A stretch of DNA of 64,000 nucleotides from NCBI GenBank assembly GCA_017936585.1, contig JAGBFI010000038.1:46503-110502 (forward strand), written 5' to 3'. This document shows, one piece after another, positions 15,928 through 39,118 of this stretch. A program made the translations under genes and the position numbers. Below the pieces are notes generated by a model. It worked only from the letters and a program-made list of their open reading frames with translations. It did no database searches and was not told where the DNA came from. This DNA is from Clostridia bacterium (GTDB taxonomy: Bacteria; Bacillota; Clostridia; Christensenellales; UBA1242). Position 1 is the first letter of the stretch. Each line of letters starts with the position of its first letter.

Positions 15928-15978
15928 TATGCAAAAGAAATTTTTATTGTGAAAAGATGTAGTTTGACAATTTTTTCG

Positions 15979-16800: not shown

Positions 16801-16851
16801 ATATTTATTGTATAATTTTTCAACAAAATTTGCAAACAAAAAGGAGCTATT

Positions 16852-21540: not shown

Positions 21541-21563
21541 AAAAAAAGCCCTTCACAAGGCTT
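21541..21563 (-). terminator. Rho-independent terminator about 210 nt downstream of the annotated stop of the 154-aa gene
   Basis: The minus-strand read is AGCCTT-GTGA-AGGGCT followed by TTTTTTT. The loop contains the TGA that closes the 73-codon in-frame extension described in the findings. Confidence 0.65.
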
Positions 21564-21774
21564 TCACTTCTGAAACCTCCACACCTTCTTCAGGCTGAGA
21601 GTCTGTCAACTGCTGACTTTCATCCGCTTTTTGCACATCATCTGGATTTTCTGTTGAATTTTCATCAAAAGCTTCGAATGGGGTTACTTCCCCTTCTCCA
21701 GTTCCCACATTTACACCCAAGCCAACTTCAGATTTCTCGTTTCCCGTCTGGCCTTCGCTTGACTCGTAACCCTT

Positions 21775-22239
21775 TTAAGCATCCTTGCCAACAGCTGGAA
21801 TTGACATGGCAAATTCATAGAATTCCGTCATATCCTTGTTCATCAAATCAACATAAATGCATCTACCCTGAAAAACACCTTTCATACCGCGATACAAATC
21901 GAAGCTTTGCAAACCTGGCTCAATTTTGAATACGAGTTCATCAAATGGCAACCCATTGATTTCAACAGGCGCACCAAACTTCAAAGAAACATAAGTGCCG
22001 TTTTGAACTTCCTCTCTATACATTTCATCAGTGATAACCCCAAACGCCGGTAAAGTGTGGCTTCCGTCAAACAAAAGAGGAATTTGTTCCTGCAGCTTTT
22101 CTTGCTGATATTCAGTGATTTCCACCACATTGCCATCAACCAGAATCTCCGCATTTTCAACATACGGCAACACATCAACAACTTCAAAAAAAGACAACAA
22201 CATCATCGGCACTCCCAGAAAAAAGAAAAGAAATTTCAT
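21775..22239 (-). CDS. Hypothetical secreted or membrane-anchored protein (154 aa to the first stop)
   Basis: It has an AGAGGTGA RBS and a hydrophobic N-terminus, MKFLFFFLGVPMMLLSFF. I recognise no family. The TAA stop is followed in frame by 73 sense codons. Confidence 0.6.
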   Translation of the reverse strand: MKFLFFFLGVPMMLLSFFEVVDVLPYVENAEILVDGNVVEITEYQQEKLQEQIPLLFDGSHTLPAFGVITDEMYREEVQNGTYVSLKFGAPVEINGLPFDELVFKIEPGLQSFDLYRGMKGVFQGRCIYVDLMNKDMTEFYEFAMSIPAVGKDA

Positions 22240-22400: not shown

Positions 22401-25400
22401 TTATCCATCAATTTCCCATGCAAGTTTTGGATATGAATTTTGAGCAAAACGCCAAATTTCTTCGTCAAACTGAACGCCTGAATTATAATATTCACCAGCT
22501 TTCAAACTGAAGCAATCTCTCGCCTCCGCCCAAGTGTCAGGCTTTTGCGAAATGAGAGTGGAAGCATTTGTGAAACAATTTTCAATTCTGCCATTTGAGA
22601 CGCCGGCCAGCCCGCCGAAAGAATAATTTCCCAAAACCTCCAAAATTGCATAGCTGTGATTCACGGTTTTTGATGTTTCCGCATTTTCATATGTGCCATA
22701 AAGTCCACCAATCATGCCCTTTCCGGTCATTGTTGAAAGGTCAATCGTGCCATTGAAATAGTTGTTTTCGCTTTTTGCTCTACCATTTCCAACAAGCCCA
22801 CCAACAACAAATTCATCAGCGGTGCCGCTTAAAACAATTCTTGCATTTGTTGCATTTTGTGAAATGTCCAACGATTTATGTGCACCTAAGTTCCCCGCAA
22901 GCCCGCCGGCAACAATCTTTTCCGCACCATTTGATGTGATTGAAATTTTTGCTCTGTTGTCATTTTTGACAATTGAACCTTGCCCTTTCCCACCAGATAT
23001 TTGTCCGGCAATTCCGCCAATTTTCAAATTTTCACCACTTGTGATGATGTTTATTTCAAGCAAGTTGATGCAATTTTCAATCTTGCCGCCAGCATTTTCA
23101 GCCACAACTCCGCCCAATGTCAGGCTTTGACTCGTTTCAAATGAAAGTTTACCTCTGACAATGCAGCCGACAATTTCTCCTGAATTATATCTTGCAATCG
23201 CACCAAACGCTGTCAAATTTGAATAGTTTTTTTCTTGCAAAACAAACTCAACATCTTTGATACTTCCGCAGTTCTTTGCAAAAAATCCGCCACTCTGAGC
23301 ATTGATATTTGTCAGCCTATACCCCTTGCCATCAAGTTGTCCCGTGAAAAGACTCCCTTGCCAAGACTCTCCTTCCATATCGATGTCATTTTCCAGCACA
23401 AAGTTTGAATATTTTGCATTTGAAAGCAGAACTTTCAATTCGTTTGAATTTTTGATTCCCATTTCCTGAGGAATAAGATAGAACGACAGCACAAAAAGCA
23501 CCAAGTTGAGCATGCCTACCCCAAATAATGTTAAAAAAACTGACTTCCAACCTTTGGAGATTTTGCTTTTTTGAATGAAATACAGCGTGAAATTGAGCAT
23601 TCCAATCACAACTGAATAAATCAATGTAACAATCAAAAACTCTTGACTGAAATACATATACACTTCTTTTGGCATAAACAATGATATTGTCAAAAGCAAC
23701 GTTGTGAAAAGAAGTGGGAAAAATTGCAGGAAAATCGTCAAAAATCTCTTCAAAAACTTGTCTTTTTTGATTGTTTTCACTTTGTTGTCATATTCAGGCT
23801 GAGTTTCCTCGCTTGTCTTGTAAACACCGGACAAGTCTTTGCCAACTCCCGTCACAGCAATTGCATTGACGGATGTGTCAAGCGACAAATCCAAAGCGGA
23901 CAATCTGACTTTTGCTTTTTCAGAAATCTCGCAGAAACTTTCAAACTTTTTGATTTTTTCAAGAGATTTAATGTATTTCTTGAAAGGCTCAAGTTGAAGT
24001 CGATAATAATCCAGGCCCTTCTTTGCTTCAAGCCCGTATTCCTTTTCAATTTCAAGCAGAATTTGCTCGTTTCGCAAAACAAAATCTTTTAATTTTGATT
24101 TCAAAGAAATCAAGTCAAGCAAATCATCCACAAACTCTTTGCGCTCGCCCTTAAACAGATTTGATTTGCTGACAATTCCGGCATAAACTTCATCCTCTTC
24201 GTCAGACGAAAGTTCAAGCAAAGTTTCCCACTCTGGCATTTGCGTCACTTTCACCCTAGACATGATGAGGTCATTGTCTGTTTTGCAATGTGCCTTGATT
24301 TTGATCAGCTGCCAATAAAGCGGCCCATTTGTCTTGTCTTTTGAGATAGCAATCGCGAGATATTTTTCCGCTTGCTTGAAAAAGCCCATATCCTGAAAGC
24401 TGTCTGCAATTTGTTTTGCAATCGCCGAAAGTTCTGGCTCTAAGTTGACATAAGAAAGATAAAAATCTAACTGCTCTTCAGCTTTGTTTAAATCCAAAAA
24501 TGCAACCGGCAAAATCAAAGAAGCAACTGTGGAAATGTATTGTGCGCGCGAACTTTCGTTGAGATATTTGAAAACCTCTTGCAGTTCCTCGTGATTTCTG
24601 TATGTCAATTTGTCTTCATCTGTTTTGAAATTTCGAAGAAGAAGGGTAATGTTACTTTGATTATGCCCCGGGTCAAGCTCCAAAATTTTCTTGTAATATT
24701 GCTTATCATCACTGCGCTGAGCCAGTGCAAAATAGAAAGAAATGAATCTGTCAACATCGTTTTTGTCAAAACACTTCAAAACTTTTTCGATCAAAGAATC
24801 GTCCAGAGTTTCAATCGCTTTGCTTTCTGCTTTTGAAACAAAATTTTCACGATTTGGAGAATTGTAGCCCGCCAAATACACCAAAAATGTTTCATAATAT
24901 TCTTCACTATCAAGACCTTCAACCAGTTTTTCCCATCTGTCAACAAAGTCCTCAGCGAAACTCTTTGATGCATATTTCAAAATCATGTCGATCTTTTCTT
25001 TGTCCTTGAAATTGGAAATATTTTGGAAAAATTCTTCTTGCGTTTTGATTTGCTTGTCTGCCAACATCTCAGCAAACAAAATCTCTGCATTGTATGGGTC
25101 TTTTTCAAGCAAATCTTTTGTGAATTCCTTTGCTGAAGCAAAATCACCATTTTTCAATGTCAAATAAATCCACTTGATTTTTGTTTCATCATTCAGATTG
25201 ATGTTGTCAACATCATAGTTTCCAAGGTCAGCCGGAACAACTGTGTCCAAGTCGACATAGGTTCGCTTGTCCGGTTCCACACTTTCCACTTTGACAGTGG
25301 AAATTTTCGCTTCTTGTTTGGTTGTTTTTTGCTTTTGATTTTCAACCATAACTTCCAAATCTTGCAAAAATGAAATTGTCCCCGCCTCAATAACGCTTTT

Positions 25401-26183
25401 GCAAGACGCCAAATCCTTTGGCAAATCCGAAAGTTGCACTTCGTCAAGAATAACAATTGCACTTGTCTTGGCTTTTTTCTTTTGCTTTATGAAATAAAAA
25501 TATCTGTCCAACAAAAATCTATATTCGTTGAACCCTTCCTTACTTGATGCCACAAGCAGCAAAACCTTGCTTGTCTGCAATGCTTGAAAAACATCCTCTT
25601 CCTTCACGCGTGGAGTTTGATGGTGGAGCGAAAACACAGAATTTTTTTCTGAAAGCTTTGCATAGATTTCGTCCACTTTTTCTTTTGCTTTTTCATATGC
25701 AACCGCACACAAAATGATGTCATATGTGCTTTTTGATGCTTTATCCTCGTGTAATTTTTTGATTTTTTCAACACGCTTTGCAATGTCTGTGTACGTTTTT
25801 GCAACCTCTGGAGGGGCAAACTTTGTTGCTTTTTGAAAGTCCACATCCTCACTCAAATTGCAAATTTGGTCAGAGAAAAAATTAGGCTTGTTCCTTGAGC
25901 CTCTTTTGTTGTTATAAAGAACAATTCTGTTCTTCGCAAGAGCCTTGCCAAAATGTGCTTCAAACGATTTTGGATAGAGTGCAATGATTTTGTCAAACTC
26001 CTCAACGGCATCATCAAACTGCATTTGACGCAAAATTTCATATGCACCAACCGTGAGGACTTCTTCCTCTTTTGAGGCGTGTTCGTCCACATACAAAGTC
26101 CCGCAGAACTTGCATTTAACCATGTTCTGCCCGACAACTTTATATTCTCGTCCTCCACAATTTTTACAAACACGCTCTCTCAT
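22401..26183 (-). CDS. 1,260-aa multidomain membrane protein with N-terminal Zn-ribbon, TPR-like repeats, a TIR-like alpha/beta module, three TM helices and an extracytoplasmic GLUG-repeat domain
   Basis: The N-terminus has CKNCGG...CKFCG. Long helical repeat regions follow. The TM cluster is LTIFLQFFPLLFTTLLLTISLF, FLIVTLIYSVVIGMLNFTLYFI and VFLTLFGVGMLNLVLFVLSFYLI. The C-terminal repeats include LGGVVAENAGGKIENC, IGGIAGQISGG, VAGGLAGNLG, VVGGLVGNG, MIGGLYGTYEN and FGGLAGVSNGRIENC. It has an AAGGAAA RBS and starts 8 nt after the ATPase gene. Confidence 0.8.
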   Translation of the reverse strand: MRERVCKNCGGREYKVVGQNMVKCKFCGTLYVDEHASKEEEVLTVGAYEILRQMQFDDAVEEFDKIIALYPKSFEAHFGKALAKNRIVLYNNKRGSRNKPNFFSDQICNLSEDVDFQKATKFAPPEVAKTYTDIAKRVEKIKKLHEDKASKSTYDIILCAVAYEKAKEKVDEIYAKLSEKNSVFSLHHQTPRVKEEDVFQALQTSKVLLLVASSKEGFNEYRFLLDRYFYFIKQKKKAKTSAIVILDEVQLSDLPKDLASCKSVIEAGTISFLQDLEVMVENQKQKTTKQEAKISTVKVESVEPDKRTYVDLDTVVPADLGNYDVDNINLNDETKIKWIYLTLKNGDFASAKEFTKDLLEKDPYNAEILFAEMLADKQIKTQEEFFQNISNFKDKEKIDMILKYASKSFAEDFVDRWEKLVEGLDSEEYYETFLVYLAGYNSPNRENFVSKAESKAIETLDDSLIEKVLKCFDKNDVDRFISFYFALAQRSDDKQYYKKILELDPGHNQSNITLLLRNFKTDEDKLTYRNHEELQEVFKYLNESSRAQYISTVASLILPVAFLDLNKAEEQLDFYLSYVNLEPELSAIAKQIADSFQDMGFFKQAEKYLAIAISKDKTNGPLYWQLIKIKAHCKTDNDLIMSRVKVTQMPEWETLLELSSDEEDEVYAGIVSKSNLFKGERKEFVDDLLDLISLKSKLKDFVLRNEQILLEIEKEYGLEAKKGLDYYRLQLEPFKKYIKSLEKIKKFESFCEISEKAKVRLSALDLSLDTSVNAIAVTGVGKDLSGVYKTSEETQPEYDNKVKTIKKDKFLKRFLTIFLQFFPLLFTTLLLTISLFMPKEVYMYFSQEFLIVTLIYSVVIGMLNFTLYFIQKSKISKGWKSVFLTLFGVGMLNLVLFVLSFYLIPQEMGIKNSNELKVLLSNAKYSNFVLENDIDMEGESWQGSLFTGQLDGKGYRLTNINAQSGGFFAKNCGSIKDVEFVLQEKNYSNLTAFGAIARYNSGEIVGCIVRGKLSFETSQSLTLGGVVAENAGGKIENCINLLEINIITSGENLKIGGIAGQISGGKGQGSIVKNDNRAKISITSNGAEKIVAGGLAGNLGAHKSLDISQNATNARIVLSGTADEFVVGGLVGNGRAKSENNYFNGTIDLSTMTGKGMIGGLYGTYENAETSKTVNHSYAILEVLGNYSFGGLAGVSNGRIENCFTNASTLISQKPDTWAEARDCFSLKAGEYYNSGVQFDEEIWRFAQNSYPKLAWEIDG

Positions 26184-26191
26184 AGTTTTCC

Positions 26192-27340
26192 TTAATTTTG
26201 ATTTGTTGTCTTTTTGTTTTTCTTTATGTAACTGCTAATTTCAGTATTGTAGGCTTCAAAACTTGAAATCTCTTTTTCTGTCACACTTGGTGGCATGCTG
26301 TCTAAAACTCTGTCAAAATCCTCATTCGTCACAAGCACAACTTTGTCCGTTGCAATTGCCTGAAGAAGAGGCTCATCCTTGGCACGGTCACAAAGTTCTT
26401 CAATGTCCGCACCGCTGTAGTTCTCCGTTTGAGCCACAATTCTGTCAATATTGAAGTCTTTGGCAACTGGCACTCTCTTCATATTTTTCTCAAGCATATA
26501 TTTTCTTGCCGCAGCATCAGGCAAAGGAAGATAAATCTTCTGAGAAAATCTACCCGAACGCATTGCCGCACTGTCAATATCCCAAGGTCTGTTTGTTGCC
26601 CCAAGCAAAAGCAGATTTGGATTTCTTCCGGCAAAGCCGTCAATTTGTTGCAAAAATTCGTTCACACGCTTGTCATTGTGAGTGTCAAGCCCACGTTTGC
26701 CAATCAAACTGTCCATTTCGTCAATGAAGATGATGGCACGGTCTTGCTTGTTTGCTTCTTCAAAAAGTGAGTTGATATTTTTCTCGCTGTCGCCCACCCA
26801 TTTGCTGACAATATCTGAGCCTTTGACTGCATAAAACTTTGCGCCGACCTCATTTGCAATTGCCTTTGCAATCATGGTCTTTCCTGTTCCTGGAGGGCCA
26901 TACAAAAGCACGCCGCCACCAGTTTTTTTGCCATACATTTTGTATTTTTCAGGATATTTCACAGGGTTTATCATCTTGATTGTGATGGCTTTTTTCACGT
27001 CTTCAAGTCCCGCAACATCATTGAATGTGATTTTTGGGATTTCCGCTGTTTGCCATTTTTTGAGAGTCTCGTCCTTTTCCTCTTCCACATCGCTCTTTTT
27101 GTCGATTTTTGCAGGCTTCTTGCCCAAGTTGTCCGCAATGTCAACAAGTTTGCGCGCCCTTTCCATGCGAACTTCTTTCAACTTCCCTTTGCTGCGAACA
27201 GCAATCTGCATCATTGTTTCACTTGCAAGCAAGAAATTACGCTTTGCAAGCGCCAAATTTCCTCTCTCTTTCGCTTCTTTACCTTTTTTCATGTAAAGTT
27301 CAAAAGTGTCCGACAAAATTGTGATGTTGTTTTCTGACAT
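26192..27340 (-). CDS. MIT-domain AAA+ ATPase, Vps4/CdvC-like
   Basis: The ATG at 27338-27340 has a GGAGAGGG RBS. The N-terminal roughly 75 aa (ELYMKKGKEAKERGNLALAKRNFLLASETMMQIAVRSKGKLKEVRMERARKLVDIADNL) follow the MIT three-helix pattern. A single AAA cassette follows, with Walker A GPPGTGKT, SKWVGDSEK, Walker B IIFIDEMD and SRH ATNRPWDIDSAAMRSGRF. The C-terminal segment DFDRVLDSMPPSVTEKEISSFEAY resembles the Vps4 C-terminal helix region. Confidence 0.75.
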   Translation of the reverse strand: MSENNITILSDTFELYMKKGKEAKERGNLALAKRNFLLASETMMQIAVRSKGKLKEVRMERARKLVDIADNLGKKPAKIDKKSDVEEEKDETLKKWQTAEIPKITFNDVAGLEDVKKAITIKMINPVKYPEKYKMYGKKTGGGVLLYGPPGTGKTMIAKAIANEVGAKFYAVKGSDIVSKWVGDSEKNINSLFEEANKQDRAIIFIDEMDSLIGKRGLDTHNDKRVNEFLQQIDGFAGRNPNLLLLGATNRPWDIDSAAMRSGRFSQKIYLPLPDAAARKYMLEKNMKRVPVAKDFNIDRIVAQTENYSGADIEELCDRAKDEPLLQAIATDKVVLVTNEDFDRVLDSMPPSVTEKEISSFEAYNTEISSYIKKNKKTTNQN

Positions 27341-27382
27341 ACCCTCTCCGTTTTTCAAATTATGCCTTCCTCAGGCAAAAAA

Positions 27383-27982
27383 TTATTTGTCTGCGTCTGC
27401 TTCGATTTTTTTTCTGAGTTCTTCCATTTCTTTTTCGATGCTTTCTGTTGAAAGTTCGTCTTGCGTTGCTTGCTCCATGATGAATTTTTCAAGTTCTTCA
27501 TCGCTCATTTGCTTGCCACTCTTGTCTTTGCCAGCGTTATAGAATGTTTCTTGGCTCATTTCCATGAAGTTGTCCATTTGGTCTGTTTGAGTTTCAACTG
27601 CCACCATAGCTTCCTCAAACTGAGCTTGAATTTTTGCAAATTCTTTTGCATCAGCAAGCTTTGTCATTTCCTTTGAAATGTCACTCATTCCACGCAAGAA
27701 CTCGCTTGTCATCATTGTCACATCTTTCATTTGAGCAGTGATTTCAAAGTTGAGAAGCATCTCCTGTGCACGCTTTTGTTGTTGAACAGTCATCTTATAT
27801 CCAGAAAGAGCCAAGTTGAATTGTGTGTCCAAATCCTTAAGTTTCGCTCTTTTTGCGGCTTCAATAAACACCTTTTTTTGTTCTTCCAAGCGGTTGATTT
27901 GCTTGTTCATTGTGTTGATTGTTCTTTTAATCAACATCTTCTTCTCGATTTCTTTTTGTTGTTTAGATTTAAAAAGTCCCAT
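27383..27982 (-). CDS. ESCRT-III (Snf7/CHMP-family)-like protein, paralogue B (199 aa)
   Basis: It starts MGLFKSKQQKEIEKK, followed by a basic helical hairpin and then an acidic C-terminal half. The segment MTSEFLRGMSDISKEMTKLADAKEFAKIQAQFEEAMVAVETQTDQMDNFME parallels the alpha3-alpha5 region of CHMP2/3-type proteins. The C-terminal amphipathic tail is SIEKEMEELRKKIEADADK. It has a GGAGGA RBS. Confidence 0.65.
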   Translation of the reverse strand: MGLFKSKQQKEIEKKMLIKRTINTMNKQINRLEEQKKVFIEAAKRAKLKDLDTQFNLALSGYKMTVQQQKRAQEMLLNFEITAQMKDVTMMTSEFLRGMSDISKEMTKLADAKEFAKIQAQFEEAMVAVETQTDQMDNFMEMSQETFYNAGKDKSGKQMSDEELEKFIMEQATQDELSTESIEKEMEELRKKIEADADK

Positions 27983-27986
27983 TTTA

Positions 27987-28598
27987 TCATTCCTCCATCT
28001 TCATTTTTTTCTTTTTGATTGGTTCTTCTTTTTCAACATCTTGCATCAATTCGTTTTCTTCTGCAAGTTGACTCTCTTTTTCAAACATTGTCAAAATTTC
28101 TTCCTCATTCTTGCCAATTCCATAAATTGGTTGATTGAGGTCATATGCCGATTGCACCTCTGTGAAAAGTTCGTCCGCGTTAGTGAGCACATCTTCTGAA
28201 GCCACCCTTGTTACCAAAGCTTTGTTCAAGAATTTTGCCAAGCCACGCTGGTCTTGCAAAAGCTCGCTGAGCGGAACCTTTGTTTGAGTTTTATAGAACG
28301 CGTTGCTGTCATATGCTTCTTTCAACTTGTTCATAAGCCTGATGTTGTAAAGCAAATACATCCCTCTTTCCATGCAAGTCTGTTTTTCTTCGTGTAGATG
28401 AGAAATCTTCTTTGCATAGAAAAGTTGAAGTTCTTTGTTCTTCTCTTTCTTCCCCTTTTCCATGAGCGCATCAATTTCTTTCAGCTTTTGATAGACTTCC
28501 GCTTCCACCGTACGCTCTTGTCTTTCAAGTTCGCAAATGGAATTGACCAAATCCTCTCTGTTTATTTTCTTAAATTTGTTACGTCTAAATGGCCACAT
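27987..28598 (-). CDS. ESCRT-III (Snf7/CHMP-family)-like protein, paralogue A (203 aa)
   Basis: It has an AAGGAG RBS. The basic N-terminus is MWPFRRNKFKKINRED. A long coiled-coil hairpin follows (ELERQERTVEAEVYQKLKEIDALMEKGKKEKNKELQLFYAKKISHLHEEK...), then an acidic C-terminal region ending EEPIKKKKMKMEE. The overall layout is Snf7/CHMP4/CdvB-like. Confidence 0.55.
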   Translation of the reverse strand: MWPFRRNKFKKINREDLVNSICELERQERTVEAEVYQKLKEIDALMEKGKKEKNKELQLFYAKKISHLHEEKQTCMERGMYLLYNIRLMNKLKEAYDSNAFYKTQTKVPLSELLQDQRGLAKFLNKALVTRVASEDVLTNADELFTEVQSAYDLNQPIYGIGKNEEEILTMFEKESQLAEENELMQDVEKEEPIKKKKMKMEE

Positions 28599-28609: not shown

Positions 28610-28969
28610 TTAATAATTATCCCCTTCGTTTATTTTGTAAATTCGCTCAAGCAAATTGTCATATTTTTTTCTCAGTGTTTCATCCGCAAGTTCCAGTGCT
28701 TTCTGACATTCAGGCAAATATATCGCGCTTTTATATTTCACCGGATTTGAAAACAACTCGTCCTCATTTGACATCTCAAATTTGACAAGCATCTGCCCCC
28801 AATAGGCATCCGCACATTTTTCGTCATATTGAGCCGCAAGCAGAAAGTTCAGTTTTGCTTGCTCAAAAAAGCCGTCCGTCAAATTCAGATATCCAAGCTT
28901 GAGTTCTTTCAAAACCCTTTCCGCCACCTCCGCAGGCAGCCCTTGCGATGTTTGATAAGTTCTTTTCAT
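28610..28969 (-). CDS. Small (119 aa) helical TPR-like protein
   Basis: The start overlaps the upstream stop (TGATG). The sequence GFFEQAKLNFLLAAQYDEKCADAYWGQMLVK is TPR-hairpin-like. It resembles residues about 55-85 of the 1,260-aa protein in the same operon. Confidence 0.5.
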   Translation of the reverse strand: MKRTYQTSQGLPAEVAERVLKELKLGYLNLTDGFFEQAKLNFLLAAQYDEKCADAYWGQMLVKFEMSNEDELFSNPVKYKSAIYLPECQKALELADETLRKKYDNLLERIYKINEGDNY

Positions 28970-29376
28970 CAGGCTTGTTCTTCCTTCTTTCTTTGAACTA
29001 TGTATGCTTCCACCTCTTCAAGCATCCTAAAGCACGTCTCTTGAGTGTTGTCTTTTGCCACAACAATCTTCAAATCGTCCAATTTGTTGGCAATTTTGCT
29101 GTCCACCAAAAGGGCTTTTTGATTTGTTGTTGGATTGAAAAATCTGATGTTGTCCTTCACTTCCACAAGTCTACGGCAAAGTTCATCATTGCCGTTGGCA
29201 TAAACGATGACGCTTTCAACATTTGCAACCATGTTTTCGATTGACTTTTTGTTTTTAAGAACTCCCTTTGATCCCCCATTCGCCTCGTCTCGTGGTTTTT
29301 TGATGTATTCTCTGCAAATGTAGTACACTGCAAATCCCACCACTGCCAAAATGATAATCACATATAAAGCAACCAT
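28969..29376 (-). CDS. Small (135 aa) N-terminally anchored membrane protein
   Basis: It has a strong AAGGAGGA RBS. The N-terminal TM segment is MVALYVIIILAVVGFAVYYI, followed by a basic stretch and a soluble domain of about 100 aa. I recognise no family. Confidence 0.6.
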   Translation of the reverse strand: MVALYVIIILAVVGFAVYYICREYIKKPRDEANGGSKGVLKNKKSIENMVANVESVIVYANGNDELCRRLVEVKDNIRFFNPTTNQKALLVDSKIANKLDDLKIVVAKDNTQETCFRMLEEVEAYIVQRKKEEQA

Positions 29377-29385
29377 AATTCCTCC

Positions 29386-30213
29386 TTAAAGTTTTTCGCC
29401 ACATTTGCTGCAGAACAGCGCATCATCCGCATTTTTCGCAAAGCACTTTGGGCATTTGTTTCCAATTTTCACTTTCATTCCGCACTTGTTGCAAAACTTT
29501 GCATCTTCTGGCAAGCTTGCGCCGCATCCTCTGCACACAAAGCTTTGAGATTTTTTCATGTTTTTGTATGCATTGTTAAGTTTCGCATAGTCCTGCTCAT
29601 CAATGATAATGTTTGCAATGTTGAAAGAAAAAACCGCAATTCCATATTCACTTTGAAGCTTGTGACTGAGTGCCGTCAGCACTTTTTGTGACATCTCTTT
29701 TTTGCAAACTGCAATTTGATTGAAAAGAACTCTATTTTCTTTGATATAGTCCACAATGACCGTTTCCATCACGGACACGACATTCGACTGCAACCTTTCT
29801 TGCAATGCGTCCGCAGTGAGGTCTTCTGATGCGCCGACAAGATAAAGAAAACTCTTTCTTGGGTCGCCAATCTGCACCTCGAAATCACCGCTGAAGTCGC
29901 AATAATAGTTTTCTTGAAGTTGCTCATCATACATCAAAAGCATTTGAGGCGTTCCCCAAAGCATTTTGAGTTTTGCCGTCTTGGACATGAAAAGAACTTC
30001 CAAAATTGCGTCAACCTCTTCTTTTGTATCCACAAATGCGGAAAGTTGAAATTTTCCTGACGACAAAGTTTGAAGCATCTGCCCATCCTTGATCACAATG
30101 GCGTTGTGAGTTTCAGGCACGATGAGTGTCTTTTTGAAATCGGCTGACTCAAGTTTCACTCTTGAGAATAAGTTGTCATTGTTTCCGCTAAATTTAATTA
30201 TATTTTGTTCCAT
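29386..30213 (-). CDS. SPFH/band-7-like protein with a C-terminal double zinc ribbon (YdjI / COG4260-like)
   Basis: The ATG at 30211-30213 has a GGAG RBS. The body resembles the YdjI / 'virion core protein'-type SPFH family (IVPETHNAIVIKDGQMLQTLSSGKF..., ...EYGIAVFSFNIANIIIDE). The C-terminus is FVCRGCGASLPEDAKFCNKCGMKVKIGNKCPKCFAKNADDALFCSKCG, which is four CxxC pairs forming two zinc ribbons. Confidence 0.65.
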   Translation of the reverse strand: MEQNIIKFSGNNDNLFSRVKLESADFKKTLIVPETHNAIVIKDGQMLQTLSSGKFQLSAFVDTKEEVDAILEVLFMSKTAKLKMLWGTPQMLLMYDEQLQENYYCDFSGDFEVQIGDPRKSFLYLVGASEDLTADALQERLQSNVVSVMETVIVDYIKENRVLFNQIAVCKKEMSQKVLTALSHKLQSEYGIAVFSFNIANIIIDEQDYAKLNNAYKNMKKSQSFVCRGCGASLPEDAKFCNKCGMKVKIGNKCPKCFAKNADDALFCSKCGEKL

Positions 30214-30255
30214 CAAAACTCCATGGGAAGTCAAGATATAAATTCCCTTAGTTGA

Positions 30256-30284
30256 ATTTTAACAAAATAAATGTCAAAAGTCAA
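30256..30284 (-). promoter_or_regulatory. Putative sigma-A promoter of the ESCRT-like operon
   Basis: The minus-strand read is TTGACT (30284-30279), a 17-nt spacer, then TAAAAT (30261-30256). It lies about 45 nt upstream of the first ATG of the operon. Confidence 0.5.
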
Positions 30285-30484
30285 AAATATAAACACACTT
30301 TTTCACGATTTTGTCGCTTAATTCACAACAAAAGCCAGACTTTTTTCACAAATTGTTGTTTTTTTGAAACTCTCAAAAAATCTTTCACCTTCTTTAACAT
30401 TTTCTGAAGGTTTGTAATACATTGTTAATGTGTTGATGTTCAACACTTAAAAGTCGTACATAAGAAAACTTTAAGGAGGCACAA

Positions 30485-30703
30485 ATGAACTTTTTTGGAG
30501 GCTCAAATTGTGGAGATGTAGGTAGAGATTGTGGTGGCTGTGGAAACGATTGCTGCTCACTCATCTTCTTACTTTTGCTCTTACAAAACTGTGGCTGCGG
30601 TTGCGGAATGAAAGGCGGAGAAATCTGCATCGATTGCGGAACACTTCTTTTCCTCATTCTTCTTTCAAACTGCGGATGTGGATGTGGCTGCAACTGCAAG
30701 TAA
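30485..30703 (+). CDS. 72-aa Cys/Gly-rich small hydrophobic peptide with an internal duplication
   Basis: A strong AAGGAGG RBS lies 5 nt before the ATG, and a strong terminator follows 45 nt after the stop. The product is MNFFGGSNCGDVGRDCGGCGNDCCSLIFLLLLLQNCGCGCGMKGGEICIDCGTLLFLILLSNCGCGCGCNCK. Confidence 0.7.
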   Translation: MNFFGGSNCGDVGRDCGGCGNDCCSLIFLLLLLQNCGCGCGMKGGEICIDCGTLLFLILLSNCGCGCGCNCK

Positions 30704-30748
30704 TTCAAACTTTGCATAAGCACCCCCTGATATATAGACTGCAGCGGA

Positions 30749-30779
30749 AAAGAATCCTCACAATGAGGATTCTTTTTTT
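30749..30779 (+). terminator. Rho-independent terminator of the Cys-rich peptide gene
   Basis: An 11-bp perfect stem AAGAATCCTCA / TGAGGATTCTT with a 3-nt loop is followed by TTTTT. Confidence 0.85.
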
Positions 30780-30961
30780 CTCCTCATTTTATCCCTCGTT
30801 CCTTGCAAACTTATCCATCGCTCACCCCGAAACTTCATGAAGAGCCCATCTTTACGTCAAAATGGCAAAAATTTGGTAGACAATATTCAAAAATCTGTTT
30901 ACTTTTTGAAAAGTTTATTGTACAATAAAGATAATTAAAGCAGTTTTAAAGGAGAAAACAT

Positions 30962-31360
30962 ATGAACGTTGCAAGAAAATATGGTCAAGGAGCAGAACTT
31001 ATTTGGAGTGACAGAAAAAGATTTTTGGGAATGCCTTTGTCATTCACAAGATATCGTCTGGTGAAAAAGCCAGGCGCATGGACAAAACTTTTTTCTGATG
31101 TAGGATTTTTATTCTCATCAATTGATGAGGTGAACATTTACAGAATCTGCGACATCCAATTTCACCAATCTTTGCTTGGAAAAATTCTCAACACCGGAAC
31201 AATCACTCTTCTCAGCAGTGACGAAAGCATGCCAACCTTCATTTTGAAGAACGTGAAAAATCCTCTTCATGTGAGAGACATCTTCTCGACACTCATGGAA
31301 GAACAAAGAAAACTTCACAATGTTCGCCTCACAGAATTTCACGACCACGACAACTATTAA
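30962..31360 (+). CDS. Bacterial PH-domain (bPH_2 / YdbT-like) protein
   Basis: It has an AAAGGAGAA RBS. The segment VNIYRICDIQFHQSLLGKILNTGTITLLSSDESMPTFILKNVKNPLHVRDIF fits the bPH_2 pattern. Confidence 0.55.
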   Translation: MNVARKYGQGAELIWSDRKRFLGMPLSFTRYRLVKKPGAWTKLFSDVGFLFSSIDEVNIYRICDIQFHQSLLGKILNTGTITLLSSDESMPTFILKNVKNPLHVRDIFSTLMEEQRKLHNVRLTEFHDHDNY

Positions 31361-31371
31361 GAAAGAAATAA

Positions 31372-31401
31372 AAACACGCAAATTTTTGCGTGTTTTTTTT
31401 G
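31372..31401. terminator. Bidirectional rho-independent terminator between convergent genes
   Basis: The stem ACACGCAA / TTGCGTGT is flanked by an A-run and a T-run. It lies between the stop at 31360 (+) and the stop at 31427 (-). Confidence 0.75.
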
Positions 31402-31426
31402 TTGTCTTTTTCGCCTCGGCATAGCT

Positions 31427-31621
31427 TTATTTTGACCTTCCATCATCCCCTTCTTTTGTCTTGTCCACAACGTTAAGTTTTGCAGAAAGTTTCTCACACT
31501 TGCTTAAAATCTTTTTGTCCGGTTTGCTGTTTTTTATCCTTTCAAACTCTTCTTGCGAAACAATATAAGCCGACTTCTTTGGCACCGCATACACCATAAA
31601 CTTGTTTTCTTCTTTTTTCAT
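31427..31621 (-). CDS. Small hypothetical protein (64 aa)
   Basis: An AAGGAG RBS lies 6 nt upstream of the ATG at 31619-31621. The product MKKEENKFMVYAVPKKSAYIVSQEEFERIKNSKPDKK... belongs to no family I recognise. Confidence 0.45.
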   Translation of the reverse strand: MKKEENKFMVYAVPKKSAYIVSQEEFERIKNSKPDKKILSKCEKLSAKLNVVDKTKEGDDGRSK

Positions 31622-31722
31622 TTTCAACTCCTTAGTCCTAATTTATTTTAGCACAAAAAATATATACTTAAACTATTTTTTAAAGAAAAAACCTAAACCA
31701 GTGGTTCGGTTTAGGTTTTGAT

Positions 31723-31799
31723 TGGTGGAGATGATCGGATTCGAACCGATGACCCCCTGCTTGCAAGGCAGGTGCTCTAGCCAACTGAGCCACACCCCC
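31723..31799 (-). tRNA. tRNA-Ala (anticodon UGC)
   Basis: The reverse complement is GGGGGTGTGGCTCAGTTGGCTAGAGCACCTGCCTTGCAAGCAGGGGGTCATCGGTTCGAATCCGATCATCTCCACCA. It folds as a cloverleaf with a G3:U70 pair, anticodon loop CTTGCAA, a TTCGAAT T-loop and an encoded CCA. A hairpin plus T-run follows at 31688-31718. Confidence 0.93.
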
Positions 31800-32059
31800 A
31801 TATTGCTCTTGCATTTTAACATATTTAAATTATATTGTCAAGAAATTTTATGAATTTTTCAAAAAAAATACAGAATGCCAATTTGTTCCAATCAAAAAAC
31901 AGGCAAAGCCCTTTGTTTTTACTTGTGAAATCATTTTCTTTTCAACAAACTTCTTTGTGATGTTTTGAAAACTTTAATTTTTCCCCAATCCAAAAAAATT
32001 TTAAAATCATGTTCTTTAATAAAAAAAACAGAGGTTCAACTCTGTCTTTTCTCTGCGTT

Positions 32060-33319
32060 TTATTTTGTTATGTCAACACGGCTTTCTTTTATTTCCTTAT
32101 ATGGCTCATCCACGTACAGCCTTTTTGCATTCACTTTTTCTCGCTCTTCAGCCAAAATTTTGTCAAAATCCAAATTGAGCTGAGTAGCTTTGTTTTTCAA
32201 AGTTGATTTCAAATCCGCAAGCTGGAGCTGTATGCTTGACACAACTTTGCCATCCTCTCTGAGTGCAAAATCATTGAAAGCAATGCAATCTTGCACACAC
32301 TTGGCAACATCTTCTTTGCTTTCCAGTTTAAGATGTTTTTGATATCTGTTCAAACATCCTGACTGAATAACCTCCATCGCGGCATAGGCTTTCGCACAAC
32401 TCTCAGAGCAGTCCTTTTTGACTCCTGTGTCGTCAACAAACTCCGGTCTTTTGAAATCCTTTATGTTGTCCAAATGTCTGCAAAGCACATTGTATGAAAA
32501 TTGTTCTCCCTCTCCAATCTCCAATTCGTTGTTGTCGTTGAACCACGCAAGAAACTCAAGCCCATCCGTAAACTTACTTTTCATGACATCGCCATATGCA
32601 AGGCAGAAACATTCCGCGATTGGATTCAAAATTGAATTGGATGAATCACGATTTCTGCACTTTATGGCAAACTTTTTTCCTTTTGCATTCACTTCAAAAC
32701 TTATCAGGTTGTCATTTCCAACAATGTTGAGAGCCAAAATTTCCGTCATCACTTCTTCCAAATTTTGCCCATAAAGGCAGTTGAATGGATGAGTTTTATA
32801 CCTTTCTCTCACTTGCTTCAGCTTGTCTTGGTCAATCTGCCCTCCCCCACTTGTGTAAACAAATCCAATGCTTGTTCCATTGAAACTTGCGGCATGAATT
32901 AGCTCATGAGTGATGACTTTTGCACGAATTTTCTTTCTCAAACCCTCTTTTTGTCCGCCAGTCTTCACACCCCACATATTCACACGGCCGTCCCAGCAGA
33001 CATCCTTTTCATCTGGCACATAAACTCTTTGCTCTGAAGCCACAAACTCGCTGCAACCATCCTTGCTTTCGGAATGCACAAATTCCTTCACATTGTTGTA
33101 AATCCGATTTAAATAAATGTCCGCAAGGGTCATTGATTGTGCATCATTCAACTTGAAACTTTTGGCATCAGGGATTTCGCCTCGTGCAATCTTTTCGGGA
33201 TAGTTTTTTCCAAAAAAAAGATAGGAAGCCGTTATTGACTCAACAACTTCATCTGTAAAGCCCGGTCTTCCCTCAAAAAGACATTTTAACTTTTGTTTTT
33301 CTTTTGAAAAATCTCTCAT
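32060..33319 (-). CDS. Hypothetical protein with an HExxH zinc-metallopeptidase-like motif
   Basis: The 419-aa product contains KVITHELIHAASFNG. Its start overlaps the upstream stop (ATGA). There is no signal peptide, and I recognise no family. Confidence 0.55.
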   Translation of the reverse strand: MRDFSKEKQKLKCLFEGRPGFTDEVVESITASYLFFGKNYPEKIARGEIPDAKSFKLNDAQSMTLADIYLNRIYNNVKEFVHSESKDGCSEFVASEQRVYVPDEKDVCWDGRVNMWGVKTGGQKEGLRKKIRAKVITHELIHAASFNGTSIGFVYTSGGGQIDQDKLKQVRERYKTHPFNCLYGQNLEEVMTEILALNIVGNDNLISFEVNAKGKKFAIKCRNRDSSNSILNPIAECFCLAYGDVMKSKFTDGLEFLAWFNDNNELEIGEGEQFSYNVLCRHLDNIKDFKRPEFVDDTGVKKDCSESCAKAYAAMEVIQSGCLNRYQKHLKLESKEDVAKCVQDCIAFNDFALREDGKVVSSIQLQLADLKSTLKNKATQLNLDFDKILAEEREKVNAKRLYVDEPYKEIKESRVDITK

Positions 33320-33579
33320 TTCTCTCTTGGTTCAACAAATCCCGCAACACTTTCGCGGTCCTGCAGTTGAAAACGATATTCTTGTTCCACATTTGGATAT
33401 TTCTCTCTGTCAACCTTACTCATGAACATCTCATATGGTCTGACATATCTCTTTCCGCTTCCATAAAGTGCACGATAAAGCACCAGCTTTTCTTTTGTCT
33501 CAGAGTGATACACCACGTCCTCAACCAAATAAAGGTCTCCCTTGAAATGTTTGTAAATTCTTCCTGGAATAAGTTGCAT
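33316..33579 (-). CDS. DUF1653-family protein
   Basis: MQLIPGRIYKHFKGDLYLVEDVVYHSETKEKLVLYRALYGSGKRYVRPYEMF matches the DUF1653 signature (Y.HFKG..Y......HSET.E..V.Y..LYG). The start was taken at the second ATG, which has a GGTGGAG RBS. Confidence 0.7.
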   Translation of the reverse strand: MQLIPGRIYKHFKGDLYLVEDVVYHSETKEKLVLYRALYGSGKRYVRPYEMFMSKVDREKYPNVEQEYRFQLQDRESVAGFVEPREK

Positions 33580-33869
33580 TTTCTCCACCCCCATATTTTT
33601 ATTAAAATGATTTTACATGTTTAAAAAATCTTTGTCAATCTTTTGTCAACATTTTAAAAATATCTTCAATTTAACATTCAGTGAAAACATCAATTCATAG
33701 TTTATTTCCAAAGATTTGATGATATAATCTGGAAAGGTTAACTGAAAAAACTCTTCATTCACATTCATTGATTTTTTTCATTTCTTCTCCAGAATTTCCT
33801 TCTTTTGAAGATTATTTTATATCTTTAAACTTTTCGAAACCTTTTTCATTTAAAATCTCAAAGTTCAAA

Positions 33870-33892
33870 CAAAAAAAGTGGCAATGCCACCC
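33870..33892 (-). terminator. Rho-independent terminator after the XRE-regulator operon
   Basis: The minus-strand read is GTGGC-ATT-GCCAC followed by TTTTTTTG, about 50 nt downstream of the stop at 33942. Confidence 0.6.
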
Positions 33893-33941
33893 TTTTTCTT
33901 TTTTGTGTCGTTTTTCAATGTTACAAAATTTTCCTCCTGCC

Positions 33942-34151
33942 TTAAAAATAAAACAAATTTTCAAACTTCTCATCAAGTGCAATACACAACAAAAGTGCCA
34001 ATTTTGCCGAAGGATTGAACGCGTTTTTCTCGATTGAAATGATTGTCTGTCTTGTTGTTCCAACGAGACGTGCAAGCTCTTCTTGTGAAAGTTTTTTTGC
34101 AAGGCGAGCCTCTTTCAACTTGTTTTTTAAAATCAATTCGTTGTTCATCAC
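33942..34151 (-). CDS. XRE-family helix-turn-helix transcriptional regulator (69 aa)
   Basis: LKEARLAKKLSQEELARLVGTTRQTIISIEKNAFNPSAKLALLLCIAL is a canonical Cro/C1-type HTH. Confidence 0.88.
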   Translation of the reverse strand: MMNNELILKNKLKEARLAKKLSQEELARLVGTTRQTIISIEKNAFNPSAKLALLLCIALDEKFENLFYF

Positions 34152-34480
34152 ATCACTCCCACAACGGTAAGAATGTAAAGAGTTATCATTGTCGCTGCAC
34201 CAGCTGCCTCAAGCACCGCACCAATCAACACCGGCCATGGTCTTTTTGCCACAAAAAATTGGCAAAAATAGAACACACTTGCCCAAATGAAACATACCGC
34301 TGAAATTGCATAAATGGCGGTGAAATGCTGGAAGAGACCTTCAATAATCATGAAAGCAACCGCAACAACGCACGCACAGACAACCGAAATCCAATTTGAT
34401 TTGTTGATTTTTTCTTTCTCCATTTCCCCCACAACTGCTTTTTTGCTTTGTGCCTTTTCGAGAATTTCTTTGTTTTCCAT
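34148..34480 (-). CDS. Small 3-TM membrane protein co-transcribed with the XRE regulator
   Basis: The 110-aa product overlaps the regulator start (ATGATG). It has three hydrophobic helices. This pairing of a membrane protein with a short XRE regulator is common in Bacillota. Confidence 0.6.
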   Translation of the reverse strand: MENKEILEKAQSKKAVVGEMEKEKINKSNWISVVCACVVAVAFMIIEGLFQHFTAIYAISAVCFIWASVFYFCQFFVAKRPWPVLIGAVLEAAGAATMITLYILTVVGVM

Positions 34481-34611
34481 AATTCCTCCTTTAAATTTCT
34501 GTAAAGTTTTATTTACATACGCATTATATGCCTTTATTTTACAAATATCAAGTTTTATTTACATTTTTTAAAAAAAATAAAAGCCACCTTTTTCAAGTGG
34601 TTTTTATTTCT

Positions 34612-35064
34612 TCAGTTTAATATCCACAAAGCAATATTTAAAGTTGTCGCAATGCAAAGCCAAATTGGATAAATTGAAATTATAAGTCCATTCATCGCAT
34701 CCACCTTGCAAATCTCAAAATACAACCTAAGCCCAAACAAAGCATTGATTATGATGATCACATTCCCGAGGAACAGTTGATGAAGAGTAAAGAAAACTAA
34801 ACACCAAAGCACATTTAACACGCCATTTATCATAAGAAGGATGATGTTTTCTTTTGCAAGAGTCTCTCGATTTTGCCATTTAATTAAAACATATGCAAAC
34901 AAAAGATATATCACAGTCCAGACAATTGGAATTACAAAAGAAGGAATCCACTCTCTTGGTTTGTTGAGCCCCTCAAACCACGCCATACCCAATTGAGCAA
35001 ATAAAGTCCCCAACCCCGCAACCAAAATTATTGAACCTAAAATTATAAACACATTCTTTTTCAT
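34612..35064 (-). CDS. tspO: TspO/MBR-family tryptophan-rich sensory protein
   Basis: The 150-aa product has five TM helices. The motifs WFEGLNKPREWIPSFVIPIVWTVIY and NVLWCLVFF are typical of TspO. Confidence 0.8.
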   Translation of the reverse strand: MKKNVFIILGSIILVAGLGTLFAQLGMAWFEGLNKPREWIPSFVIPIVWTVIYLLFAYVLIKWQNRETLAKENIILLMINGVLNVLWCLVFFTLHQLFLGNVIIIINALFGLRLYFEICKVDAMNGLIISIYPIWLCIATTLNIALWILN

Positions 35065-35271
35065 GTTTTTATTTTATGCAAATGTTTAAAATTTATACTA
35101 ACTTCTCAACCCCCATAAACTTCATCAACTAAACACATACGTATGTGTCTGGGCAAACATTTCCTTCGATTAAATCAACTTCTTTCTATTCTAACAAACG
35201 CCTCAAAATCCCCCTAGAAAGTTTGAGGGTATATACAAAAAAAAAGAATAGCGATTTGCTATTCTTTCTTG

Positions 35272-36546: not shown

Positions 36547-36608
36547 TTCCCCTCCTACAATTTATTGGTCAAAGAAATTAAAACTAATCGCTAAAAAGTT
36601 TTTATTTT

Positions 36609-37094
36609 TTAATCTTTTTGAATCTTGTCTTTAATATTGTCAAAACCAATAACAAGTGCTGTCAAAAACGGAATTTCTTTTTCGTCCGCTTCAAGCATGA
36701 AACTGTCAGCAATCAAAGTGAATTCTCTGACAATAACGCCAACCTCTTGCTCGTTTTTGAAAATTTTGCTTGTGCGTCCAAAAATTTTACCTTCAATCGA
36801 CATAGCGTCAACGCAATCCTCGATTTCATATTTTGCATTGAAACTCCATTTGTTCTTTTTGATTGTTGCAAGTTTGTTCTTTTGAGCATCAAAAATGAAA
36901 ACTTTATTTGCCAATGGATTAAACCATCTGTTTCTTACAACATAAAGCAACTCTTCCTTTGCATTGTAAATTTTCTTCTTTTTTGTTGGGCTGAATACTT
37001 TTCCTTTCACCTTGTATACAAGTTCTTTGTTTTCATTGAGAACTTCTGAACTCCCTCCAACTGAAACAACCTTGTTTTTAATAAATAATTTCAT
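36609..37094 (-). CDS. LURP-one-related (YxjI / tubby C-terminal-like) family protein
   Basis: MKLFIKNKVVSVGGSSEVLNENKELVYKVKGKVFSPTKKKKIYN...FIFDAQKNKLATIKKNKWSFNAKYEI matches the LOR/YxjI pattern, and the length is 161 aa. Confidence 0.55.
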   Translation of the reverse strand: MKLFIKNKVVSVGGSSEVLNENKELVYKVKGKVFSPTKKKKIYNAKEELLYVVRNRWFNPLANKVFIFDAQKNKLATIKKNKWSFNAKYEIEDCVDAMSIEGKIFGRTSKIFKNEQEVGVIVREFTLIADSFMLEADEKEIPFLTALVIGFDNIKDKIQKD

Positions 37095-37116
37095 GTTTTT
37101 TCTCCTTATATAAATT

Positions 37117-38132: not shown

Positions 38133-38331
38133 AAATCCTCTCTTAAAAAGAGTTTAACATAAAAAATCATTTTTTCAAAACAAAAAAACGTTTTTTATGA
38201 TTTTATTCCAATTTTTATATAATCACGACTAAACTCTCAGTTTTTTCATCCTCAGTGATTTTTTCGAAAATGCTTTGAAACGCGAGCGTCATTGTGATAC
38301 AATATCATATAAAAAGATGAGAGGTAAAACA

Positions 38332-38985: not shown

Positions 38986-39118
38986 TCTTTTAAAAATAAA
39001 AAACACCAATTGTTTGGTATTTTTTTGTATTATAAAACCTACTGGGAATTTTCCTGATTTGTATCAACTTTAATTTAAAAAATAAAAGCCTTGAATAAGA
39101 CTTTTTGTTGCATGTATT

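Follow-up and report, generated by a model that had tools for sequence, protein, structure and literature searches.

A 64,000-nucleotide stretch of a Clostridia genome (contig JAGBFI010000038.1 of assembly GCA_017936585.1; hereafter the window) carries two adjacent genes, here called A and B, whose products are likely to be two different subunits of a bacterial Snf7-lineage ESCRT-III-type polymer, encoded in a conserved operon of seven to eight genes together with probable recruiters and a probable remodelling motor. Coordinates given throughout are positions in the window, and all genes of the operon lie on the minus strand. Both open reading frames (ORFs) were found exactly as a first-pass annotation had described them, along with every peptide string quoted there and the ATPase gene that it had placed at 26192–27340. 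The three central genes are as follows.

27987..28598 (minus strand): gene B, 203 amino acids (aa), MWPFRRNKFKK...EEPIKKKKMKMEE
27383..27982 (minus strand): gene A, 199 aa, MGLFKSKQQKE...SIEKEMEELRKKIEADADK
26192..27358 (minus strand): gene for the MIT-AAA ATPase, which probably starts at the ATG at 27340

Protein A is best assigned to the Snf7 lineage of ESCRT-III proteins. Taken alone, A matched nothing in Pfam, NCBIfam or PDB sequence searches, and diverse homologues and profiles were needed to bring out its Snf7 signal. Among 1.8 billion representative proteins, searched exhaustively with HMMER, A had 314 homologue clusters at E<=1e-3, 168 of them at E<=1e-10, and a family alignment was built of 94 full-length members (23–53% identical to A, each at E<=1e-11 to A). 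Pfam Snf7 was matched by 17 of these 94 homologues (best E 1.4e-9) and was the sole recurrent family, every other Pfam family being matched by a single member; PspA_IM30 was not listed among them. The family profile, searched with HMMER against 177,635 PDB sequences at E<=10, retrieved 11 ESCRT-III chains with E-values running from 6.5e-7 to above 0.01. CHMP2A was the top match (E 6.5e-7), below it stood CHMP3, CHMP1B, Vps24, CdvB (weak, E 1.2) and CHMP1A, and no PspA or Vipp1 chain was found at this threshold. HMMER pairs the profile segments ...FlkgmsalskeI...fakvqkefekam... with CHMP2A MAQAMKGVTKAM...LPQIQKIMMEFERQ...MDMKEEMMNDAIDDA, which reproduces the alignment of A to CHMP2-type proteins previously made by eye; for A the resemblance goes well past what chance would give. 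The elements of A discussed below are these.

27935..27982 (minus strand): N-terminal basic/aromatic motif of A, MGLFKSKQQKEIEKKM, an alpha0-like element
27554..27961 (minus strand): ESCRT-III core of A, residues 8-143 (profile positions 8-143 against CHMP2A 5-143)
27479..27508 (minus strand): acidic helix alpha5 of A, MSDEELEKFI (family consensus [VI][ST]DEEIDxLI), helix 160-171 of the AlphaFold2 (AF2) model
27404..27448 (minus strand): C-terminal amphipathic helix of A, TESIEKEMEELRKKI, with MIM1-like spacing, within helix 178-197 of the AF2 model

A further match came from a tblastn search of plasmid records, in which A had a single match, to a Thermococcus peptonophilus replicon (E 6e-10, 95% coverage). 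The matched protein, WP_062390961, aligns with A end to end (27% identity over 190 aa), is scored by the A family profile at 85 bits and reaches an hhalign probability of 98.8; it is listed as an arCOG07402 protein of the ESCRT-III/Snf7 family, beside Vps4 (Makarova et al. 2024, PMC10936438). An N-terminal motif is common to A (LFKSKQQKEIEKK) and this Thermococcus homologue (LWKSKEEKEIERK). Within the A family the motif is conserved at F4 (64 of 83 in the column), K5 (70/85) and K10 (69/94), and we consider it a putative membrane-binding element. The basic-to-acidic polarity that had been noted for both proteins is real, with net charges in A of +9 over residues 1-100 and -14 over residues 101-199. 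Taken together, the Snf7 matches among homologues, the PDB profile matches and the arCOG07402 alignment place A in the Snf7 lineage rather than with PspA/Vipp1-type proteins, its closest relatives by sequence being the CHMP2/3/1 (Vps2/24/46) class and archaeal arCOG07402. Profile comparison had been named beforehand as the deciding test of whether A stands nearer to Snf7/CHMP/CdvB than to PspA/Vipp1, and it came out in favor of the former. A PspA/Vipp1 identity of A is ruled out by the Pfam scan of homologues and the PDB profile search, and a generic coiled coil of the SMC or apolipoprotein kind was also rejected, no such family recurring among the matches.

The AF2 model of A, made from a shallow alignment (predicted local distance difference test score, pLDDT, 67.6), has helices at residues 6-47, 51-105, 111-149, 160-171 and 178-197 in an open ESCRT-III topology, helix 51-105 uniting alpha2 and alpha3, as is seen in open forms. 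No Foldseek E-value reached significance for the model of A or of B, and the matches served as rankings calibrated against A. The list for A is enriched in CdvB, CHMP2A, Asgard ESCRT-IIIB, Snf7 and CHMP1B, with TMt values of 0.57–0.69 to CHMP2A, Asgard ESCRT-IIIB and the Snf7 core (E>=0.24); Vipp1 stands at rank 20.

The acidic half of A ends in two conserved helices. Column conservation in alpha5 is high at D161 (73/94), E163 (71/94), I164 (62/94) and I168 (63/94). The terminal helix TESIEKEMEELRKKI combines an acidic lead-in, hydrophobic residues at i, i+4, i+7 and i+11 and a KK pair, and the region is conserved at I182, L186, L189, K191, K192 and L193 across the 94-member family; AF2 helix 178-197 has the highest pLDDT in the C-terminal half of the protein. 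The MIM1-like helix proposed at the end of A is present and conserved across the family, and a role as the Vps4 handle, through MIT binding, is plausible.

Some homologues of A are fused to DNA motors. In RuvB-type fusions (P0167, P0174, P0233 and P0248) an N-terminal Snf7-like domain of ~190 aa is followed by RuvB_N and RuvB_C, often with NERD, and in FtsK-type fusions (P0182, P0188 and P0195) a domain of the same type and length precedes FtsK_alpha and FtsK_SpoIIIE. These architectures would represent an ESCRT-III-like module replacing the membrane anchor on DNA motors. A metagenome scan for the FtsK-fused homologue returned only ordinary FtsK genes lacking the ESCRT-III-like domain.

Protein B can be regarded as a probable but very divergent ESCRT-III subunit with a relationship to archaeal arCOG09749. 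No direct sequence match was found for it, so the evidence for its membership is indirect. Window B alone gave no Pfam, NCBIfam or PDB sequence match, and tblastn against plasmid records gave none even at E 10. In the database clustered at 90%, the B family counts 363 to 821 members. We built a B profile from 22 sequences, the orthologues being taken from genome loci; PspA_IM30 was not listed for these 22 homologues, and the profile found no PspA or Vipp1 chain in the PDB at E<=10. When this profile was aligned by hhalign with WP_062390966 of Thermococcus, the probability was 70.7 (P 3.8e-5, 115 columns; controls <=18). WP_062390966 is listed as an arCOG09749 'Snf7 family protein' (Makarova et al. 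2024, PMC10936438), and Snf7 heads its own Pfam matches, though without significance (E 0.64). Against the A family, the B profile aligned over 163 collinear columns with a score of 28.1 (P 0.0015, probability 16.7%), above all 22 reversed or column-shuffled control trials (maximum 22.8). The divergent orthologues were needed for this: when only close homologues of B were used, in a shallow alignment, hhalign with the A family found nothing (probability 0.8).

The AF2 model of B (pLDDT 67.7) has helices at residues 13-50, 54-96, 116-126, 133-153 and 164-188, of which the first two form a confident hairpin (pLDDT ~80–88) that is followed by the three shorter ones. Its top Foldseek match is the CdvB2 filament (probability 0.97, TM 0.42–0.47, E 0.06), CHMP2A, Asgard ESCRT-IIIB and CdvB also stand near the top, and the ranking is at least as good as that of A. 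The N-terminus of B resembles that of A in type.

28563..28598 (minus strand): N-terminal motif of B, MWPFRRNKFKKI, net charge +5

Orthologues conserve W, P, F and K here (MWPFK...), with F3, K7 and R13 invariant or nearly so, and the net charge of B passes from +5 in the N-terminal half to -8 in the C-terminal half. The claim that B is ESCRT-III-like is moderately supported, by its predicted topology, by CdvB2 as top structural match and by the 71% hhalign probability to arCOG09749; a direct Snf7 match was looked for and not found. The first-pass annotation had further described A and B as two adjacent paralogues. They are adjacent and of two subunit types, but recent paralogy finds no support: A and B look to be old and distinct kinds of subunit, each with an archaeal counterpart of its own. 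The Pro-containing basic tail of B (EEPIKKKKMKM), to which attention had been drawn, is not conserved outside the closest relatives, and a function of this tail as MIM2 was ruled out on that ground.

The gene that follows A encodes an ATPase with a predicted Vps4-like architecture, namely an MIT-like N-domain and one AAA cassette.

27119..27316 (minus strand): MIT-like three-helix N-domain of the ATPase, residues 15-80, recognized via orthologous N-domains
26780..26806 (minus strand): pore-loop-1 segment SKWVGDSEK, read from the sequence; SKW/YVGESEK in orthologues

The cassette is single and of the classic AAA type (Pfam AAA 2.9e-42, AAA_lid_3 3.3e-9), with Walker A GPPGTGKT at residue 154, SKWVGDSEK at 185 and Walker B IIFIDE at 209. 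We take the segment SKWVGDSEK to resemble the Vps4 motif KWMGESEK. The MIT-like nature expected of the N-domain emerged through orthologues: MIT was the top Pfam family for orthologous N-domains (4 of 14, best E 1.2e-4), and five of the eight weak PDB matches of an N-domain profile were MIT domains, among them those of chitin synthase (E 0.018) and of VPS4A/B (E 0.5–1.9). In BLASTP the ATPase aligns with Thermococcus Vps4 (arCOG01307) from residue 18, the N-domain included (32% identity over 325 aa, E 1e-45), and the NCBIfam CdvC model matches it over its full length (2.4e-61, 208 bits; equivalog cutoff 650).

Two variants of this ATPase were seen in other genomes. In Christensenellaceae-like loci the ATPase (L055:6775-8271, L058:10584-12140, L065:10602-12047 and L069:10576-12171) has an extra C-terminal domain of ~110–150 aa with conserved aromatic and Gly positions. 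At L068:2364-4553 two AAA modules stand in tandem in an ATPase of 729 aa, which recalls Cdc48.

These three genes stand in a conserved neighborhood. In a context scan of one genome per GTDB species, 143 stretches encode a relative of A and 80 loci were retrieved, all from Clostridia metagenome-assembled genomes (MAGs) labelled Caccovivens, Coproplasma, Christensenella or Christensenellaceae, a protein identical to A being labelled 'Clostridia bacterium' and the close relatives of A 'Candidatus Caccovivens'. Identity to A across the 80 loci is 56–95%. The SPFH/Zn, membrane, B, A, MIT-AAA and TPR proteins recur in all 80 with gene order kept, and each locus has exactly one A and, wherever the contig spans the region, one B. 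No phage or viral-contig relatives of the locus were found. A phage or plasmid origin was considered and rejected: there were no phage or viral-contig matches, and the sole plasmid match is an archaeal ESCRT locus. In the more distant loci (L055–L080) one or two TPR proteins of ~550–600 aa, for example L063:10608-12347 and L073:12884-14662, lie between A and the ATPase.

The other features of the operon are listed in the order in which they are read.

30256..30284 (minus strand): sigma-70-like promoter match, TTGACT-17-TAAAAT with an upstream TG, just 5' of the SPFH gene
29386..30234 (minus strand): gene for an SPFH/zinc-ribbon protein (Pfam Band_7_1 1.2e-13, Zn_Ribbon_1 2.3e-12, DZR 1.7e-9)
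28969..29376 (minus strand): gene for a 135-aa single-pass membrane protein that has an N-terminal transmembrane segment (residues 1-19 by hydrophobic window) besides its cytoplasmic part, which is helical
28610..28969 (minus strand): gene for a 119-aa small helical TPR-like protein, found only in closer relatives
22401..26183 (minus strand): gene for a 1260-aa zinc-ribbon/TPR/transmembrane protein (Pfam TPR_14 3.7e-7, TPR_19 5.4e-5)
21544..21565 (minus strand): intrinsic-terminator-like hairpin with a T run, a 9-bp stem followed by TTTCTTTT, a pattern match only

B and A are separated by 4 nt, and most gaps between neighbors in the co-directional run are <=11 nt. The promoter match, a pattern match only, is the region's best in a consensus scan (10 of 12). 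The SPFH/Zn gene heads the cluster in 73 of the 80 related loci; its product has two C-terminal zinc ribbons, is soluble by a hydrophobic-segment scan that found no such segment and is YdjI/SamI-like when set beside the published description of YdjI. The 135-aa membrane protein, kept in 75/80 loci, had no family match in the Pfam scan. Nor had the 119-aa protein, which is kept in the Caccovivens-like loci. The divergent loci (L055–L080) lack the latter, the sole similarity there being to TPR proteins at E 1e-4 to 1e-5. The 1260-aa protein has an N-terminal zinc ribbon, TPR repeats and three to four transmembrane segments at about residues 813-897 (hydrophobic windows 813-831, 845-863 and 879-897), and its C-terminal repeat region is presumably extracellular. 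Close loci keep it 3' of the ATPase, and distant loci have TPR proteins there.

Directly after the 1260-aa gene lies a gene for a 154-aa protein with an N-terminal hydrophobic segment (21775–22239, minus strand). It lies ~3.7–4 kb further downstream in most related loci, so the window lacks an intervening segment that is present there. The hairpin 3' of this ORF is the likely end of the operon. The flanks are bacterial, with a pyruvate formate-lyase gene downstream and a gene for a bPH_2 protein upstream. GC content is 0.33–0.36 at positions 14000–18000 and 30000–40000, the latter just upstream of the operon, and ~0.40 elsewhere. Three giant minus-strand ORFs, at 4074–15104, 45004–51924 and 51925–57093 (3676, 2306 and 1722 aa), have no Pfam match at E<=1e-4; the last two are adjacent and nearly abut, and these ORFs may encode surface or secreted proteins.

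From these components a working model can be outlined. The SPFH/Zn protein and the single-pass membrane protein would mark a membrane site, by analogy with YdjI and YdjG/H recruiting PspA. B and A would bind the cytoplasmic face there through their basic N-terminal halves and the MWPF and MGLFK motifs and co-polymerise. The MIT-AAA ATPase could then dock on the MIM1-like helix of A and thread subunits through its KWVG pore, leading to disassembly or remodelling of the filament, and the large Zn-ribbon/TPR/transmembrane protein may link the machine to the envelope. The process served could be membrane repair or envelope stress, which is suggested by the analogy to PspA–YdjI, or scission at division or sporulation necks, which is suggested by the archaeal and eukaryotic relatives and by the A-like domains fused to FtsK/SpoIIIE and RuvB (with NERD).

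Several results weigh against a two-subunit polymer turned over by a Vps4-type motor, and some of them fit other explanations. Both AF2 models are of moderate confidence (pLDDT ~68) and come from shallow alignments. The Arg position of the eukaryotic MIM1 consensus is Glu in A, with Lys or Arg in ~45% of the family, and the terminal helix is retained in the homologues of A that are fused to RuvB or FtsK, for which reason it may be structural and not a Vps4 handle. Even the 22-sequence profile of B gave no significant match to Pfam Snf7 or to an ESCRT-III chain in the PDB; precomputed Pfam domains are absent from the best 120 B-family members of either search; every Foldseek E-value for B is >=0.06, and the non-significant matches include BAR domains and designed bundles; and hhalign puts B and the A family at a probability of a mere 16.7%. 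Such a pattern would be expected if A were the only ESCRT-III protein and B an unrelated coiled-coil adaptor or nucleator, CdvA-like or a substitute for ESCRT-II, that shares the hairpin shape. We regard this as unlikely. CdvB2, CHMP2A, Asgard ESCRT-IIIB and CdvB dominate the high-probability Foldseek list of B, which at least equals that of A, a protein whose membership sequence matches establish, the hhalign probability to arCOG09749 stands at 70.7 against controls that reach at most 18, and the alignment of the B and A families runs end to end, scores above all 22 controls and joins proteins with the same type of N-terminal motif and the same charge polarity.

The remaining points concern the ATPase. 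The N-terminal 110 residues of the window ATPase have no Pfam MIT match, and among NCBIfam models CDC48 (4.6e-65, 220 bits) scores above CdvC (208), FtsH (204) and PAN (203 bits). In PDB searches the p97 D2 domain scores 205 bits with the ATPase, and for the lid region p97, AFG2, katanin and VAT come nearest, with Vps4 absent from its best 60 matches, in a search swamped by p97 entries. Matches in plasmid records are to CDC48 and FtsH at 35–39% identity, and Vps4_C (PF09336) reaches only 1e-3 and 19.4 bits, under the Pfam cutoff of 21.3, compared with 7.7e-9 in the archaeal Vps4 comparator. The AAA module is thus equidistant from several families and not clearly orthologous to Vps4, and the protein is Vps4-like by architecture. 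Together with an operon whose first genes, as in pspA-ydjGHI, encode an SPFH/Zn protein of YdjI-like kind and a protein of the membrane, this would suit an envelope-stress module of PspA type that replaces PspA-YdjGHI in this lineage and in which the AAA protein is a general Cdc48-like unfoldase rather than a dedicated Vps4-like disassemblase. This too seems improbable, the more so as A is Snf7-type, not PspA-type, and bears the conserved MIM1-like terminal helix, the N-domain of the ATPase is MIT-like and aligns from residue 18 with archaeal Vps4, and the ATPase is linked to A and B in all 80 loci; nor are a repair function and Vps4-like turnover mutually exclusive. An anti-phage defence or accessory island built around an IetA-like AAA ATPase is highly improbable. 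The PADLOC IetA models do match the ATPase (2.6e-40), as does NCBIfam IteA (2.3e-33), but these matches are limited to the generic AAA cassette, on which ground the defence reading is rejected; moreover, no other gene matches PADLOC, there is no protease partner, and the cluster appears vertically conserved over many species, beside housekeeping genes and with no relatives on phage or viral contigs. That the window, which derives from a MAG and whose closest annotated relative outside the clade is archaeal, reflects archaeal contamination or a chimeric assembly is scarcely credible: 80 assemblies, independent of one another and drawn from many studies, carry the same cluster on contigs of up to hundreds of kb that are labelled Clostridia, Christensenella, Caccovivens or Coproplasma, GC and skew are uniform over the window, the flanking genes are bacterial and the archaeal identity is merely 27%.

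The locus contradicts recent surveys, which give the pairing of Snf7-type ESCRT-III with an MIT-AAA ATPase to archaea and eukaryotes alone. It runs counter to a 2025 review for which a Vps4-like ATPase "appears absent in bacteria" (PMC7619361), as well as to the displacement of snf7 described where such ATPases did reach bacteria (PMC11237479). The operon joins what surveys keep apart, namely Snf7-lineage subunits, an MIT-AAA ATPase and a TPR-transmembrane protein, in Clostridia. Full-text searches, whose coverage leaves out most subscription journals, found no published description of it. It would offer a bacterial system for studying ATP-driven ESCRT-III turnover, a bridge between bacterial PspA-SPFH stress modules and archaeal ESCRT machinery, and a data point for dating the ESCRT-III–Vps4 partnership or a transfer between gut archaea and bacteria. 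A more far-reaching scenario, which we offer tentatively and hold to be somewhat doubtful, is that a gut Clostridia clade (Caccovivens, Coproplasma and Christensenella-like) vertically keeps a complete Snf7-type ESCRT-III/Vps4-type machine that acts in neck scission and not in repair alone. The machine would, on this scenario, either be an old acquisition from Euryarchaeota or have been kept since a pre-archaeal ancestor, and the necks would be those of cytokinesis, sporulation or vesicle release. Were this true, the FtsK/SpoIIIE- or RuvB-type fusions would couple DNA clearance to membrane abscission.

Among known bacterial systems, the pspA-ydjGHI (samGHI) operon of B. subtilis resembles the window in encoding an SPFH/Zn protein and a small membrane protein with a polymer former of the ESCRT-III superfamily. 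There YdjI, an SPFH protein that is soluble and carries a zinc finger at its C-terminus, acts with YdjG and YdjH, which are membrane proteins, to recruit PspA to the membrane (PMC8581546), and SPFH proteins with zinc ribbons also accompany the archaeal Meth_adaptin ESCRT loci (PMC10936438). The polymer formers of the window differ in being two in number and Snf7-type, not PspA_IM30, and a dedicated MIT-AAA ATPase is present that the Bacillus operon lacks. [quoted passage not shown] The window is similar to these MIT-AAA operons, as they are described, in that the MIT-AAA ATPase is followed by a large protein with TPR and multiple transmembrane segments, but its ATPase gene comes straight after two ESCRT-III-type genes, whereas in those operons snf7 is reported to be absent.

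The crenarchaeal CdvABC system likewise combines ESCRT-III paralogues and an MIT-AAA ATPase (CdvC) in one locus; the NCBIfam CdvC model spans the window ATPase, and CdvB and CdvB2 are among the sequence and structure matches of A and B. In contrast, the window lacks CdvA, a winged-helix (wH) domain on its ESCRT-III proteins and a conserved proline-rich MIM2, the CdvB match is weak (E 1.2) and the CdvC score of 208 bits is far under the cutoff of 650. With the eukaryotic CHMP2/CHMP3/CHMP1 and VPS4 proteins, the former being the best PDB sequence matches of the A family, the window shares an N-terminus of MGLF type, a basic core followed by an acidic tail, MIM1-like spacing in a C-terminal amphipathic helix and an ATPase made of an MIT-like domain and one AAA cassette. 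The similarity is remote, however; ESCRT-0, -I and -II components and a ubiquitin link are missing from the window, the MIM1 Arg is not conserved in the A family and the ATPase has no Vps4 beta-domain.

The euryarchaeal 'Main clade' of ESCRT systems (Thermococcales and others) comprises the Snf7-family arCOG07402, arCOG09749 and arCOG09747 with Vps4 arCOG01307 (PMC10936438). In Thermococcus the gene matched by A has neighbors annotated as Ser/Thr kinase, 'ATP-binding protein' and PP2C phosphatase, and Makarova et al. assign this set to arCOG07402, Vps4 (arCOG01307) and components of the 'Main clade' system. The complete 'Main clade' ESCRT locus of Thermococcus peptonophilus (L081, NZ_CP014751.1 9920-26471) encodes arCOG08177, arCOG09748, two Snf7-family proteins, a Ser/Thr kinase, Vps4, PP2C and ESCRT-III; it adjoins a heavy-metal P-type ATPase gene on a 49-kb replicon classed by PLSDB as a non-mobilizable plasmid. 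The window differs from this clade in its bacterial host and in lacking the wH protein arCOG09748, the Cas2/TBP protein arCOG08177, the Ser/Thr kinase and the phosphatase, having instead the YdjI-like SPFH/Zn, small membrane and zinc-ribbon-TPR-transmembrane proteins, and its ATPase is just 32% identical and nearer in sequence to Cdc48 D2. What the window has in common with the clade is A as a full-length homologue of arCOG07402 with the same N-terminal motif, arCOG09749 as the best remote match of B, and several different ESCRT-III subunits encoded with an MIT-AAA ATPase in one operon.

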